From positions 1 to 36,443 of the forward strand of contig CAZOYD010000034.1 of assembly GCA_964583985.1 (NCBI GenBank): a stretch of 36,443 nucleotides of DNA. The letters are read 5' to 3'. Of the stretch, positions 24,729 to 30,108 are shown in pieces. The position numbers and the translations under genes are program-made. This DNA is from an uncultured archaeon. Its GTDB lineage: Archaea > Asgardarchaeota > Lokiarchaeia > Sigyniarchaeales > SOKP01. Under the pieces are notes generated by a model, which was not told the origin of the DNA, ran no database searches, and saw only the letters and a list, made by a program, of their open reading frames with translations. How positions within the stretch are numbered: position 1 is the first letter of the stretch; every line of letters starts with the position of its first letter.

Positions 24729-26525
24729 TCAAATGAAAGATTTCTTATAAGAAATGATTTTATCGTATAAATCAGATTCTTTTTTAATTGGAAGGCTAAT
24801 ATTATTAATTTTTCGCCTTACTTTTATCTCGGAATCGGCATTGAAATTAACATGGATGACATTCGATTTTCGACCTTCATTTAAAAGAATTATTGAAATA
24901 TCTTTATAAGGTACCTGGTAATATTTTTTAAAGATTTTCAAGATTAATTTTTGATTGGTAAAGATGTAAATTCTATTAATGAAAACGTAATTATATAAGG
25001 ATATTGTAGTAAAAATTATTATTGTCATTCCAAATGTAAAAGTTATGACAAAATTAGGCATCATAAATAAGAATTCTAAAACGCTCCAAATACTAAACAA
25101 GATTAAAATAACACCGACACTAAAAATGATTAAATATATGAGTAATATATATGTCTTTCTCTCGTGTTGATAAATTGTTAATACTTTCTCATTAGTATTA
25201 AGAACTTTTTTAACGTTATCTTCTTGTTCTTCAGATAATCCGAATTTCTGGGAAGAAATAGTGTCTACGATGGGGGAGGAATCAATTTTTCTTTTTATGG
25301 ATTCCTTTGATTTTACCATACTTTTCTGATTCCTTAAACTTAAGATTTCCTCCTCATTCAAGAGGAGTTGATGATGATTTTTCCATGAAAGATAACTTAA
25401 GTATAAAAGTTCCAGTACTTTTATGATTTCTATTGTAGGTCCAAACTTTACTTTCAAATCGGGGTTATCAAAGGACTGAATGGTAATCGTGCCTATATAG
25501 GTAAAGTTCTCGGACATTTTATTGGGAATGATTTTAAAATCGAATCCTATATTTGAATTGAAATTGAAGATGATGGTTCTTTTCTCATTAATATATTTTA
25601 ATCCTTCTGGTGTTATTTGTATCATGCCATCACTTGAAGGTACGACTTGCCTGATATGAATATCGAATGATGCGATAAATATCACTAATGTAAGACTTGC
25701 TATTATTCCAAATATGCAAATTAAAGAGACAATGTTATTACCTAATGAAATAAAAATGGTGCAAAATATGAAATTTAAAATCCCAATTCCAAGTACAATA
25801 TTATGATTTCGGACCCGCTTCTTCAATCTGATACATTCTTGACTTGTAGGACTAATCTCGGGAGGCTTACTCAGATTTAATTCCTTGATAATAGTATCTA
25901 TTCGTCCTTTAACATCTTGATATACCCACATTATCGATTCAATAATGTTATATTTTAGAAGAACATCATTTGTTTCTCCTATAGCCATTCTATTGGTAGG
26001 ATCAGTTATGAATTTCAAATTAGATTCTTTAGGGTAAATGAAATCAATTAACCCGTTGGGAACTAAATCCTTCTTTTTTTTTAATTTTCTTAACAAAATC
26101 GCTTTTAATGAACTTAATTCGATCTTTTCAAGAGTCTCAGATTTATTCGAAGAAAAAAATCTCCTTGAATGATGATATACATATACAGCTCTATTGGAAA
26201 ATATGAAATAGTTAATGGAACTTAAAATATTCAATTTGACTAAAAATACCCAGTATATCCACATTAGAATTGATGAACCAAAAATGAAAATATTGATAAT
26301 CATATCTATCTCTCTTTTAACAATTTGAAATAAGATTAATAATTCGATTATGATTGCGATTTGAAGGATTGGAACAGCAAACTTAATAAATTTAGTACTG
26401 GAGGGATTATTAAAGCCTTTAGATTTATATAAAATTATCTCATCTGCTGATAGATTATTTTGTATGTTTGCGGGAACTTCTTTATCATAATCATTTTCCT
26501 CATCATTAACTTTTTGTCTTTTCAT
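24729..26525 (-). CDS. Membrane protein with repeated [2 TM + PH-like domain] units
   Basis: Three TM hairpins. L-x-x-x-E-x-(I/V)L ... Y-x-(I)F-(S/T)N-(R/Q) motifs in the N- and C-terminal units resemble prokaryotic PH-domain proteins. Confidence 0.6.
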   Translation of the reverse strand: MKRQKVNDEENDYDKEVPANIQNNLSADEIILYKSKGFNNPSSTKFIKFAVPILQIAIIIELLILFQIVKREIDMIINIFIFGSSILMWIYWVFLVKLNILSSINYFIFSNRAVYVYHHSRRFFSSNKSETLEKIELSSLKAILLRKLKKKKDLVPNGLIDFIYPKESNLKFITDPTNRMAIGETNDVLLKYNIIESIMWVYQDVKGRIDTIIKELNLSKPPEISPTSQECIRLKKRVRNHNIVLGIGILNFIFCTIFISLGNNIVSLICIFGIIASLTLVIFIASFDIHIRQVVPSSDGMIQITPEGLKYINEKRTIIFNFNSNIGFDFKIIPNKMSENFTYIGTITIQSFDNPDLKVKFGPTIEIIKVLELLYLSYLSWKNHHQLLLNEEEILSLRNQKSMVKSKESIKRKIDSSPIVDTISSQKFGLSEEQEDNVKKVLNTNEKVLTIYQHERKTYILLIYLIIFSVGVILILFSIWSVLEFLFMMPNFVITFTFGMTIIIFTTISLYNYVFINRIYIFTNQKLILKIFKKYYQVPYKDISIILLNEGRKSNVIHVNFNADSEIKVRRKINNISLPIKKESDLYDKIISYKKSFI

Positions 26526-26671: not shown

Positions 26672-26710
26672 AAGTTTAAAAAAAAATTAATTTATTAAAA
26701 AATTGAGAAT

Positions 26711-27238
26711 TTATTTTTTGTATCTTATATCATCTGAATCGTCTTTATATTTATCATAGTATTCAATGTCCACTAACCCGCCAACCCTTTCGTCCTTCCA
26801 ATGAGCAATGATTGGCATTCCCACATACGTATCTTTTACATTTACATCTGGACTTAACTCAGCAATGCTAACGGTGTCAGCTCCATCATGATGAACCAAG
26901 ACCATGGGTCTTTCTTGAACCTCGCCAGTTTCTGGATCCTTCAAGTATGAAATTGCATATGTTGATACACTCGCAGTTTCTCTTATGTCAACCCATTTAT
27001 CGGGCTTTACAAGGCATTTTCCACAAACTAATCGAGGTGGAAAAAAGACCCTATTACATGAAGAACATTGATTTGCCACTAGCTTTTTCTCTTTTAATTT
27101 TGCTAAAAACGGTTTCATGTGGGTAATATTAAATTTGTAGTTATAACTCGATAAATACCAGCTTCCAGGTTGGGTACGAGTTCTCACGTATTCTTTTTTA
27201 ACATAATCTAACGATTTTCTTTGAGTCATTTTTGACAT
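26711..27238 (-). CDS. DUF35 Zn-ribbon/OB-fold protein (thiolase-fold partner)
   Basis: CSSC..VFFPPR..CGKC, followed by OB-fold strands ending in VGMP. Confidence 0.88.
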   Translation of the reverse strand: MSKMTQRKSLDYVKKEYVRTRTQPGSWYLSSYNYKFNITHMKPFLAKLKEKKLVANQCSSCNRVFFPPRLVCGKCLVKPDKWVDIRETASVSTYAISYLKDPETGEVQERPMVLVHHDGADTVSIAELSPDVNVKDTYVGMPIIAHWKDERVGGLVDIEYYDKYKDDSDDIRYKK

Positions 27239-27244
27239 TGTCTT

Positions 27245-28492
27245 TTACCTCCACTTCCTTTGGGGCTGATCGCTCATTGCCATTAAAGTTATGAGATTGA
27301 GTGAGCCACCCCATCCAGATCCAATTGACGTATGAACTGTCTTTGGAACTTGATTGCTCGCCTTGCCCATAATCTGCAACGCCGCTTCGGCTGGTCTTTC
27401 CATTGCGGAAGCACCTATTGCATTGGTTGAATTCACACCACCAGAACAGTTTACGGGTAATTCTCCATTAAAGTCAGTAATTCCTGCTTCGTGCATAGCT
27501 GGTGCAGTACCTTCCTCGAAGAGTCCGAGCTTCTCTGTCCACAAAAGTTGTTGATTTGGGAATGGTGCATACACTTCCGCATAATCAATTTCCTTCCTTG
27601 GAAATGAAATTCCGGCTTGCTTATAGGCTAACTCAGAGGATCGAATCGCACCAAGTTGCATTGAAGGATCAATCTGGGCTGAACCGCTACCATCATAACC
27701 TAATACTGCGCTTTCATTGGCTACGCTTGCGACTCCATTGACATAAACTGGGATATCACACATCTCTTTAGCCTTCTCTTCTGTTGTGAAAAGCATTACA
27801 CATGCTCCATCGCTTGCAGGGCATACCATTCCATAACGTAAAGGGTACTGAACGTATGGCGTGTCTAAAACTTCTTCAATTGTGAGATTGGGCATTTTTA
27901 AATGCGCCCACCATGTTTTTGCAGCATTTCGTCTATTTTGGACAACCACTCTTGCCAAGTCTTCTTCAGAGATTCGTGTTTTATTCATGTAAGTCGTAGC
28001 TTGGTAAGCTGCAACCCCGATAGCTGCTCCTGCAGAAAGTAACCGTGAAATTCGTTCATATGGAATACCAAGTGTGTTAAGAATTGAAATTTCTCCATAA
28101 GCCACACTAGCTAAGCCAACACTGGTGTCTCCTTGAGATTGCTGTTCAAAAGCAACGGCTAACACCGTATCGACTCCAGGTAATCCGGCAGCCACGGTAT
28201 AATAACCGGATATGGCGACGGATCCACCCGTAGTTCCTCCAGTTGTTACGCGTAATAAAGGTTTATTTCTTGCACCCATCCAGTCAGTCATCCATAATTC
28301 AGGTATGTTTGACCCCTCAAAAGCGGGCATGTTACCGTTAACAAATGCATCAATGTCACCAAGTTCCACGCTTGGAGCATTTTTCAAACAATCCTCTATA
28401 GCTTCACTAACTAGTTCAGGCATGCTCACATCAGATCGTTTTGAAGCATGCTCGCTAAACCCGGCAGAAGCTATTGCTACTTGTCTTCCCAT
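27245..28492 (-). CDS. Thiolase-fold protein, Ltp3-like (no nucleophilic Cys)
   Basis: KRSDVSMPELV.EAI, FEG...PEL, KPLLRVTTGGTTGGS, CPASDGAC, AEVYAPF and SGGVNSTNAIGAS. Start at ATG 28492 with GGAGG RBS, 1 nt after the upstream stop. Confidence 0.85.
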   Translation of the reverse strand: MGRQVAIASAGFSEHASKRSDVSMPELVSEAIEDCLKNAPSVELGDIDAFVNGNMPAFEGSNIPELWMTDWMGARNKPLLRVTTGGTTGGSVAISGYYTVAAGLPGVDTVLAVAFEQQSQGDTSVGLASVAYGEISILNTLGIPYERISRLLSAGAAIGVAAYQATTYMNKTRISEEDLARVVVQNRRNAAKTWWAHLKMPNLTIEEVLDTPYVQYPLRYGMVCPASDGACVMLFTTEEKAKEMCDIPVYVNGVASVANESAVLGYDGSGSAQIDPSMQLGAIRSSELAYKQAGISFPRKEIDYAEVYAPFPNQQLLWTEKLGLFEEGTAPAMHEAGITDFNGELPVNCSGGVNSTNAIGASAMERPAEAALQIMGKASNQVPKTVHTSIGSGWGGSLNLITLMAMSDQPQRKWR

Positions 28493-28493
28493 T

Positions 28494-29633
28494 TTAATTT
28501 GCCTCCAATACATATAAAATATTATTTTGGGCACACATTCCTATTTGTCCCGATGCTACTGCTTTTTTAGCACCCTTTACTTGATATTGCCCTGCTTCAC
28601 CGGTTAATTGCTTAACCGCTTCAATAATGCGGATTAACCCCGTTCCACAGGGAGGATGCCCGCCAAGAGCACCTCCAGAAGGGTTTATTGGTAAATCTCC
28701 ATTTATTGCAGAATTAATTTCAGCTCCTTTTCCCTTCTTAGCAAATCCTAATTCTTCGGCAAAAATCAATTCTTCATGGGCACATGCTTCAAATAGTTCT
28801 GCTACATCGATTTCTGAACTTGGATCCTTAATGCCAGCACCAGCATATGCCATTTTTCCAGCTAAGTTCATTGATTTGCATCCAGATAAGTCACGATCCC
28901 CTAAATAATAAGGCTCTTGGCTGTATCCTACACCTTTTATCCACACGGGTCTATCAGTAATCTTTAAAGCTTGTTTTTCAGGTGCTAATAACAATGCTGC
29001 CACGCTATCACATGGTGGAGCTGCCATCAATTCGGTGACTGGATCAGAATATATCCCAGAATCTAAAACGTCCTTAACCGTTAAATTTGGTAATTGAGCC
29101 TCCTTCAGTGCTAATGGATTTTTAGCAGCATTTTTTTTGTTTTTTACAGCAACTTTCGCAATATCCTCCACAGTAACTCCGTATTTTTCCATATAAGCCC
29201 TCATTTGAAACCCTGCTGAAGTGATATCATTAACGTATGCTAAAGGACGTTCCCAGGTCGGATCCGTCTCATAAAGCCTTGCACTATGATAAGGATAGCA
29301 AGATGCCATGCTACCACCCCATACTAGAGCTAAATTATGGTTACCCGAGAGAACTCGCATTAATCCATATAAAACTGCGTGTGCTCCATCCATTTCAACC
29401 TTACTCTCATCAGCCATATATCCACCTCCAACTTCAACGGTAAAGCAATTAGAAATGGTGCGACCGTCATAATAATCATTTGTACAAGAAATAACTGTTG
29501 AAATGTCTTTTTTCTTTAGTCCAGCTTTATCTAAAGCACCTCGAGATGCCTCAAAAATCATTTCATAGCGCCCGTAATTTGCGTCTGAATATAATTTAAC
29601 CTGATAATAACCTACTATTCCAACTTTTTGCAT
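28494..29633 (-). CDS. Thiolase-fold protein, Ltp4-like (no nucleophilic Cys)
   Basis: DYYDGRTIS, ESKVEMDGA and PINPSGGALGGHP; GGAGGTG RBS. Confidence 0.85.
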   Translation of the reverse strand: MQKVGIVGYYQVKLYSDANYGRYEMIFEASRGALDKAGLKKKDISTVISCTNDYYDGRTISNCFTVEVGGGYMADESKVEMDGAHAVLYGLMRVLSGNHNLALVWGGSMASCYPYHSARLYETDPTWERPLAYVNDITSAGFQMRAYMEKYGVTVEDIAKVAVKNKKNAAKNPLALKEAQLPNLTVKDVLDSGIYSDPVTELMAAPPCDSVAALLLAPEKQALKITDRPVWIKGVGYSQEPYYLGDRDLSGCKSMNLAGKMAYAGAGIKDPSSEIDVAELFEACAHEELIFAEELGFAKKGKGAEINSAINGDLPINPSGGALGGHPPCGTGLIRIIEAVKQLTGEAGQYQVKGAKKAVASGQIGMCAQNNILYVLEAN

Positions 29634-29646
29634 TCTATCGCACCTC

Positions 29647-30108
29647 CTAAACCTTTATGAAACCCTTGATATCCGAAGGGTCTCCTTTAGTATTTTCGTT
29701 CCATTCGATTTTAACTTTCATGCCAATTTTTACATCTTTAGGTTCCATGTTCAATAATCTATAGATTATTGATGTATTGCTACCATCAATTTGAACTATG
29801 CCAATTATCCAATCTTTTGCTTTTCTCGAGCTCCTATCATTAATCCGATATGGAGTTATCGTGAAATTCTTGAGAATTCCCGTATCTGGCAAATCAACCC
29901 AGTTTTCTTCTAACGGAATCACTACATTGCACTGGCCACAAATTTTTCTTGGTGGTACAAACACATCTCCACATTTTGGACACTTATTTCCCATAATTTT
30001 TTTATTTTCCAATCCATCATAGAATTTATCTAAATACTGTCCAACCCAAAATGCAAAATCTGCTCGAACAAGACCCTTATTTGCAACTATAACTTTTTCT
30101 TCACTCAT
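29647..30108 (-). CDS. DUF35 Zn-ribbon/OB-fold protein
   Basis: CPKC..VFVPPRKICGQC and VKIGMKVKIEW. Confidence 0.9.
   Translation of the reverse strand: MSEEKVIVANKGLVRADFAFWVGQYLDKFYDGLENKKIMGNKCPKCGDVFVPPRKICGQCNVVIPLEENWVDLPDTGILKNFTITPYRINDRSSRKAKDWIIGIVQIDGSNTSIIYRLLNMEPKDVKIGMKVKIEWNENTKGDPSDIKGFIKV

Follow-up and report, generated by a model that had tools for sequence, protein, structure and literature searches.

The four genes described here lie on the minus strand of a contig from an uncultured Lokiarchaeia archaeon (CAZOYD010000034.1, assembly GCA_964583985.1), the whole 36,443-nucleotide stretch of which we refer to as the window; the source genome comprises 3.8 Mb in 138 contigs and is estimated to be 100% complete. 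Two of the genes, thlA and thlB, encode proteins of the thiolase fold and are bracketed by two genes for small DUF35 proteins, DUF35a and DUF35b (Table 1). The tight packing reported when this DNA was first described is borne out by the open reading frames (ORFs), which leave intergenic gaps of 13, 1, and 6 nt. Both thlA and thlB match the Pfam domains Thiolase_N and Thiolase_C_1 (2e-29 for the latter in thlA). DUF35a matches zf-ChsH2 (4e-6) and OB_ChsH2_C (3e-9), and DUF35b matches zf-ChsH2 (6e-9) without an OB_ChsH2_C match and scores 64 bits against DUF35a in BLAST. The start of thlB is the ATG at 28492, which agrees with orthologues of 415 aa; a 429-aa version with an upstream GTG start is unsupported by these orthologues. 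Scanning for bacterial promoters and terminators yielded nothing relevant at the operon. The order DUF35a-A-B-DUF35b, in which A and B stand for the thlA-type and thlB-type genes, is identical in every complete-module locus that we compared (about 84, from Promethearchaeota/Lokiarchaeia), down to 44%-identity orthologues of other Asgard families, although many of these loci come from close kin and do not count as independent events.

Table 1. Genes and signals of the operon, in coordinates of the window.
Feature	Position	Strand	Description
DUF35a (153 aa)	30108..29647	minus	Cys4 zinc ribbon CPKC...CGQC and OB fold; first gene of the operon
thlA (379 aa)	29633..28494	minus	Cys-less thiolase-fold protein of A type, resembling Ltp4; probably a partner without catalytic activity
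thlB (415 aa)	28492..27245	minus	Cys-less thiolase-fold protein of B type, resembling Ltp3; probable catalytic subunit (Tyr308)
DUF35b (175 aa)	27238..26711	minus	Cys4 zinc ribbon CSSC...CGKC and divergent OB part; last gene of the operon
thlA ribosome-binding site GGAGGTG	29641..29647	minus	overlaps the DUF35a stop codon; read from sequence
thlB ribosome-binding site GGAGG	28502..28506	minus	9 nt ahead of the thlB ATG; read from sequence
DUF35b ribosome-binding site GGAGG	27248..27252	minus	abuts the thlB stop codon; read from sequence
Nine-T run after the DUF35b stop	26678..26686	minus	likely archaeal terminator; read from sequence

A preliminary description of this DNA had stated that both thiolase-fold proteins lack the nucleophilic Cys, and alignment with solved thiolases and with actinobacterial proteins confirms this. 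When thlB is aligned to 6ESQ, 7YVY, and 6HRV, Gly86 occupies the Cys site, Tyr308-Ala-Pro-Phe stands at the HDCF motif, and Asn357 takes the position of the GHP His; none of the residues that characterize a true thiolase (the nucleophilic Cys, the His and Cys of HDCF, and the His of GHP) is present. In thlA, the Cys loop reads EMDG and carries a 3-residue deletion, the acylation site has no Cys, and the GHP His is found in only 4 of 83 orthologues, 69 of which have Asn. The alignment contains no Cys column conserved at any catalytic position of either the A or the B clade that could compensate for the loss, and the B-clade signature of Gly, Tyr, and Asn recurs in 41 diverse relatives. Judged by these residues, thlA and thlB are not thiolases, and thiolysis would be impossible without an acylating Cys. 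Contig C55 (7692-8876) encodes a thiolase-like protein of the true-thiolase group that keeps HDAF and GHP and has Pro at the Cys site (ENGPASGGS).

The preliminary description had further likened the two proteins to mycobacterial Ltp4 and Ltp3, which are encoded by Rv3522 and Rv3523, next to the double-DUF35 gene Rv3521 (locus numbers from PMC6429209). We compared them with three actinobacterial loci (Nocardia farcinica, Tsukamurella, and Streptomyces), each of which encodes a tandem-DUF35 protein with two OB_ChsH2_C stretches, followed by two thiolase-domain genes. The cited motifs do occur there, ESHVEMD(A/G) and RVHTAGSVGGS in all three loci and AEIYVPF in two of the three; the Nocardia farcinica and Tsukamurella proteins show all of them. 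The actinobacterial proteins also pass the NCBIfam models for Ltp4 (NF005924 / PRK07937, cut-off 419 bits) and Ltp3 (NF006180 / PRK08313, cut-off 514 bits), with 573-596 and 717-750 bits, respectively. The archaeal proteins remain under both cut-offs: NF006180 is the best family for thlB by 158 bits, at a score of 348 bits, while thlA reaches 176 bits on NF005924, behind its best NCBIfam matches PRK06065 (216) and PRK06066 (200).

Phylogenetic analysis supports the separation from thiolases that had been proposed. In a tree of 73 sequences (a quick IQ-TREE run under LG+G4, with Shimodaira-Hasegawa-like approximate likelihood ratio (SH-aLRT) support only, and with Ltp2, Sal, BbsB, and PhlC not included), the Cys-bearing thiolases form the outgroup (97) to a Cys-less A+B clade (99), and both thlA and thlB fall outside the true thiolases. 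We find thlA with Ltp4 in the A clade (27 rows, SH-aLRT 100) and thlB with Ltp3 in the B clade (31 rows, SH-aLRT 94), where thlB belongs to a 7-row subclade (99) apart from the Ltp3 subclade (95); neither is sister to its actinobacterial counterpart. By this topology, the A/B duplication is older than the split between archaeal and actinobacterial modules, and the two genes have been passed on together as pairs. Outside the Asgard archaea, thlB has its nearest relative in uncultured Actinomycetota, a protein of 411 aa with 44% identity. The suggestion that the DUF35 pair is split around the operon holds to the extent that two separate genes bracket thlA and thlB, but a one-to-one correspondence with the halves of the tandem protein is not evident: the actinobacterial halves group together (88/85), and the BLAST scores of DUF35a and DUF35b against them follow no pattern.

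Conservation separates the two thiolase-fold subunits. Across 83 orthologues, 42% of the thlB columns are at least 98% identical, compared with 25% of the thlA columns. Thr83-Thr84-Gly85-Gly86, Gln164, Tyr168, Tyr308, Pro310, Phe311, and Asn357 of thlB are invariant, and the pocket residues Tyr308, Asn357, Gln164, and Tyr168 are also largely kept across the whole B clade. By contrast, the HDCF-equivalent positions of thlA drift (Phe in 86% and Ala in 58%; Cys284 of the window's protein is Tyr in most orthologues), while its EMDG loop is invariant, which suggests some role for this part of thlA. Given that the active-site positions are fixed in B and drift in A, thlB is probably the catalytic subunit and thlA its structural partner. 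We rejected an essential housekeeping role, as might be read from identities of 86-95%: these matches come from the same genus or family, and orthologues with at least 68% identity are limited to one family and 3 of 15 genomes of another genus.

An AlphaFold2 model of thlB, built from a 113-sequence alignment (predicted local distance difference test score of 92), adopts the SCP2-thiolase fold. Its best fold matches, which include 6ET9/6ESQ, 7YVY, 4YZO, SCP2 thiolases, PhlC, BbsB, and Ltp2, are all DUF35-associated or SCP2-type proteins, and neither the sequence search nor the fold search returned an Ltp3/Ltp4-type structure among its matches. The Tyr of AEVYAPF had initially been likened to that of the Tyr-dependent Ltp2-DUF35 retro-aldolase, and its position does match that of the proven base in TcLtp2 and CtSal (PMC12329534). 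In TcLtp2, Tyr294 of the YDHF motif is the proven base and Tyr344 the acid, whereas CtSal employs the pair Tyr302 and Cys304, has Gly at the thiolase Cys position, and places Gln161 in the oxyanion hole (PMC12329534). With the Tyr, the Gly, and a Gln-x3-Tyr element all kept in thlB, Tyr-initiated retro-aldol cleavage is plausible.

The module thus described is probably a C-C lyase for a hydroxyacyl-CoA and not a thiolase. We are moderately confident that its four genes encode one heteromeric, Tyr-dependent hydroxyacyl-CoA aldol-lyase complex, with thlB as the catalytic subunit and a substrate that is probably a non-sterol acyl-CoA; we infer complex formation, chemistry, and reaction direction from gene structure, thiolase-residue loss, clade membership, conservation, and gene neighbourhoods. 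A thlA-thlB heterodimer of the SCP2-thiolase fold would hold one DUF35 zinc-ribbon/OB protein at each side, and the DUF35-thl-thl-DUF35 layout of the solved Ltp2 and Sal complexes would be assembled from four different chains. Tyr308, in the place of HDCF, would remove the proton of the beta-hydroxyl group of a 3-hydroxyacyl-CoA, and cleavage between C-alpha and C-beta would yield an aldehyde or ketone and leave acetyl-CoA, or a different short acyl-CoA, in its enolate form. Gln164 and backbone amides might stabilize this enolate, which would then be protonated, while thlA, with its degenerate site, would serve as dimer partner and DUF35 dock. An acyl-CoA ligase, a dehydrogenase (acyl-CoA dehydrogenase or FabK-like flavoenzyme), and an enoyl-CoA hydratase could supply the substrate, and the complex would act where ordinary beta-oxidation comes to a halt.

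Related loci fall into three synteny types, the first of which is that of the window itself, where the operon lies among a SepF-like gene, an aldo-keto reductase, a GFO-type oxidoreductase, a nitroreductase, and MFS transporters. The second type combines an acyl-CoA dehydrogenase, a 473-aa thiolase-like gene, BKACE, the module, a GntG/threonine-aldolase-family gene, and an ABC transporter; in a variant of it, an FNR-like reductase, a CrtI-family flavoenzyme, enoyl-CoA hydratase, ligase, and acyl-CoA dehydrogenase genes accompany the module and the aldolase-family gene. In the third, Hermodarchaeum-type arrangement, the gene of a FabK-like flavoenzyme of the NMO family precedes the module by 3-14 nt, and that of a long-chain-type acyl-CoA ligase follows it after 34-47 nt, giving an apparent six-gene operon with gaps of 3-47 nt in two loci (L125:9-5778 and L128:6280-12368). 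A FabK-like gene also precedes the module of a 44%-identity orthologue by 55 nt, the Tsukamurella Ltp4/Ltp3 locus likewise contains NMO-family, enoyl-CoA hydratase, and ligase genes, and at least four NMO-family genes are found in the source genome. The recurrence of ligase, dehydrogenase, and hydratase genes fits with a role in CoA-ester metabolism.

Two further observations concern these neighbourhoods. In several Lokiarchaeia, a flavoenzyme of the CrtI/phytoene-desaturase family (about 517-530 aa) recurs in a conserved pair with an FNR-like 2Fe-2S reductase (about 395 aa), adjoining enoyl-CoA hydratase, ligase, and thiolase-like/DUF35 genes (L130:8085-10830 and, in the window's own genome, L019:821-3604). 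In the window, a 598-aa ORF without a Pfam match (24729-26525) separates DUF35b from the nitroreductase gene; given that the nitroreductase gene directly follows DUF35b in the closest relatives (L052-L054), this ORF is an insertion in the source genome.

The source genome also encodes a second module (contig C2, about 122.9-126.2 kb; L018:12879-16178), which has the order A-B-DUF35-DUF35 and is accompanied by BKACE, a class-III aminotransferase, and an old-yellow-enzyme (OYE)-type reductase. Its second thiolase-like ORF spans 334 aa, but the family match continues upstream across one TGA and one TAG codon, and the gene may be truncated or broken. Further thiolase-like/DUF35 pairs occur nearby, together with SCP2, ligase, and enoyl-CoA hydratase genes. 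In a relative's genome (G143), locus L047 (contig C6, 60.5-80.5 kb) contains three Cys-less A/B modules with two DUF35 genes each within 12 kb, two of the order A-B-DUF35-DUF35 and one of the order DUF35-A-B-DUF35 with 71% identity to the window; the flanking ORFs of 444 and 300 aa are named acyl-CoA dehydrogenase-sized and BKACE-sized from size and position alone.

The operon is visibly richer in GC than its flanks, as first pointed out, with values of 0.38-0.43 over 27-30 kb against about 0.30 around it. Codon positions 1, 2, and 3 have a GC content of 0.54, 0.47, and 0.33 in thlB and of 0.52, 0.41, and 0.26 in thlA, the last being average for a genome with a mean of 0.25 at third positions. 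The excess at positions 1 and 2 points to a Gly/Ala-rich protein composition and not to foreign DNA. We therefore rejected the idea that a recent horizontal transfer had raised the GC content, also in view of the average third positions of thlA and of a synteny with the SepF-like and nitroreductase genes that extends genus-wide. The nearest relatives are all metagenome-assembled genomes of Promethearchaeota/Lokiarchaeia.

With respect to the substrate, the proposal of an archaeal counterpart of the branched-sterol retro-aldolase is not supported. Model scores lie under the cut-offs, the tree does not place the sterol enzymes as sisters of the archaeal proteins, and we identified no sterol gene in the window or adjoining the module at about 84 related loci. 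Ligase and hydratase genes, the kinds of partner that fadD19/echA19 represent in sterol catabolism, lie near the module in some lineages only. As stated in PMC6273163 (citing Wilbrink 2012), Ltp3 and Ltp4 are aldol-lyases needed only for branched (C24) sterol side chains. Among the partner genes that had been considered, crotonase-family proteins give about 14 matches in the source genome (17 hits, some being pieces of one gene), but an acyl-CoA carboxylase was not found: the carboxyltransferase family PF01039 has no match in this genome, estimated to be complete, and matched 12 of 14 control genomes. Carboxylation-dependent removal of a branch is therefore unlikely. The original interpretation survives in that the proteins are not thiolases, belong to the Ltp4 and Ltp3 clades, share gene order and two DUF35 units with that system, and, in thlB, keep the Tyr.

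Several observations weigh against the aldol-lyase proposal. The window offers no metabolic neighbours of the operon, and the best fold matches of thlB are the archaeal acetoacetyl-CoA thiolase 6ET9, 7YVY, and 4YZO, with Ltp2 only at rank 19; judged from the model, the fold search does not discriminate an aldolase from a thiolase. The label 'aldol-lyase' for Ltp3 and Ltp4 itself comes from genetics together with an analogy to Ltp2 and Sal. Of the catalytic pair of the solved enzymes (the Tyr of a Y-D-H/C-F/Y motif with Tyr344 of Ltp2 or Cys304 of Sal), Tyr308 is kept in thlB but the second residue is not: Asn357 stands at the Tyr344/Gln352 position and Pro310 at the Cys/His position, and on alignment no acid catalyst is nameable.

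This gap in the mechanism also speaks for the possibility, which we consider unlikely, that the module does something else or is catalytically inert, whether as a scaffold or lipid-binding pair without catalysis, as a decarboxylase of acyl-CoAs (TbSLP shows this activity weakly), or as a PhlABC/MucABC-like acyltransferase. The thlB fold is equally close to PhlC, MucABC, BbsB, and TbSLP, and DUF35 proteins scaffold several unrelated complexes (PMC12329534), which would be compatible with such roles. However, the polar pocket residues of thlB are strictly invariant in 83 orthologues, arguing for catalysis; the module has no third subunit of the PhlA/KAS-III type, and PhlC and BbsB retain their Cys.

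Aldol reactions are reversible, and the complex could also run in the synthetic direction. Acetyl-CoA would be joined with an aldehyde, such as the acetaldehyde that an enzyme of the threonine-aldolase type releases, to form a 3-hydroxyacyl-CoA, followed by dehydration by enoyl-CoA hydratase and reduction by the FabK-like enzyme, resulting in a Cys-free two-carbon elongation that might act as a fermentative electron sink. About 27 of 84 loci, in two different arrangements, do have a gene of the GntG/threonine-aldolase family next to the module (its score of 370 bits exceeds the cut-off), and the flavoenzyme of the six-gene operon is closer in kind to a reductase, FabK, than to a dehydrogenase. 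Yet the aldolase gene mostly lies on the other strand or at a distance of more than 430 nt, the kinship among loci means that these counts are not independent, and the AMP-forming ligase and acyl-CoA dehydrogenase neighbours fit degradation better. This direction is also without biochemical precedent, and we regard it as rather improbable.

Still less probable, in our view, is a lyase for tertiary beta-hydroxyacyl-CoAs that serves to degrade branched lipids, be it sterol or hopanoid side chains or the 3-methyl-branched isoprenoid acids of archaeal lipids. It could draw on homology to Ltp3/Ltp4 and their restriction to C24-branched sterols (PMC6273163), on the CrtI/phytoene-desaturase-family flavoenzyme, FNR-like reductase, enoyl-CoA hydratase, long-chain-type CoA ligase, and acyl-CoA dehydrogenase genes beside the module in two synteny types, and on an SCP2 lipid-binding gene in a related cluster of the source genome. 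A 3-methyl branch would also block 3-hydroxyacyl-CoA dehydrogenase, a block that a retro-aldol step would bypass. But the lack of sterol catabolic genes in the neighbourhoods examined, the missing PF01039 carboxyltransferase, and a tree in which the sterol enzymes are not its sisters speak against it, the CrtI-family matches lie under their cut-off, and relatives occur widely among anaerobes as well as at Streptomyces loci that have no sterol genes. One version of this idea, which we consider very unlikely, is an oxygen-free isoprenoid route in Asgard archaea. Here, a 3-hydroxy-3-methylacyl-CoA that no dehydrogenase can oxidize would arise through ligase, dehydrogenase, and hydratase, and the complex would split this tertiary compound, uncarboxylated, into acetyl-CoA and a methyl ketone. 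If true, such a route would permit the turnover of archaeal or sedimentary isoprenoid lipids.

The label of the source annotations, acetyl-CoA C-acetyltransferase or beta-oxidation thiolase, agrees with the thiolase Pfam domains but is extremely improbable, with no acylation-site Cys in either protein, no conserved catalytic Cys column in either clade, both proteins outside the true thiolases, and a canonical thiolase and HMG-CoA synthase-DUF35 set elsewhere in the genome. This set lies on contig C39 (1-2432), where a 480-aa HMG-CoA-synthase-like ORF with an in-frame DUF35 zinc ribbon is followed by a thiolase gene; by sequence, it looks like the canonical mevalonate-entry set with HMG-CoA synthase fused to DUF35. 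A role of the operon as the mevalonate-entry complex was rejected because of this C39 set.

Under their database label of acetyl-CoA acetyltransferase, these proteins would be taken for thiolases of beta-oxidation or the mevalonate pathway by any metabolic reconstruction that relies on labels, although they lack the residues for that reaction. The A/B-DUF35 proteins form a large family, of which Ltp3 and Ltp4 are the only members with functional evidence, and this evidence is genetic. The archaeal form consists of four small, separate, and strongly conserved subunits and lends itself to structure determination and assay, each of which would be a first for the family, and the identity of its substrate would tell how these syntrophic archaea handle acyl-CoAs beyond normal beta-oxidation. 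The contrast in conservation between A and B, the operon with FabK-like and ligase genes, the absence of the carboxyltransferase, and the codon-position account of the GC rise are what the present analysis adds.

Comparison with solved proteins places thlB among several relatives. The archaeal acetoacetyl-CoA thiolase (6ET9; TM scores of 0.85/0.90 to the thlB model) is also a thiolase fold held by a DUF35 protein, but, unlike thlB, it contains the Cys, HDCF, and GHA/GHP and is partnered by HMG-CoA synthase. ST0096 of Sulfolobus tokodaii (4YZO), likewise archaeal, is the closest solved sequence to thlB (E 8e-31) and has Ser at the nucleophilic Cys site, while its active site differs from that of thlB in retaining the His in HDMA as well as GHP. 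In TcLtp2-ChsH2(DUF35) (6OK1; TM scores of 0.78/0.84 with the thlB model), an SCP2-thiolase fold is docked to DUF35 as proposed here. CtSal, which has CtShy as its DUF35 protein and is, like TcLtp2, a steroid side-chain retro-aldolase, shares with thlB the Gly at the Cys site, the Tyr at the head of the motif, and the spacing of Gln161/Tyr165, which corresponds to Q164-x3-Y168. Both TcLtp2 and CtSal are distant in sequence (E 4e-11 and 3e-16) and, in contrast to the proposed thlA-thlB heterodimer, form homodimers.

The closest parallel is the Ltp3/Ltp4 system, which likewise has two side-by-side Cys-less paralogues, A (Ltp4-type) followed by B (Ltp3-type), and two DUF35 units per pair. In actinobacteria, these units form one upstream tandem protein, whereas the archaeal ones are separate genes on either side of the pair; both archaeal DUF35 proteins carry Cys4 ribbons, in contrast to the N-terminal halves of the three tandem proteins, which have no Cys ribbon. 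The Ltp3 residues are recognizable in thlB, with TTGG, YAPF, and TNA in place of HTAG, YVPF, and S/TNP and a common pattern of an xTxG-x-x-GGS loop (Gly for Cys), Y-x-PF, and S/T-N-P/A at the GHP position, although thlB is about 25 residues longer. Similarly, thlA and Ltp4 have in common the ES-x-VEMD(G/A) loop and the 3-residue deletion at the Cys site, but the HAPF motif of Ltp4 is not found in thlA, which has FEAC at this position (variable among orthologues). The host also differs, being an anaerobic Asgard archaeon without a sterol gene context. Taken together, these likenesses in residues and gene order identify the module as a real but distant archaeal variant of the Ltp4/Ltp3-DUF35 system.

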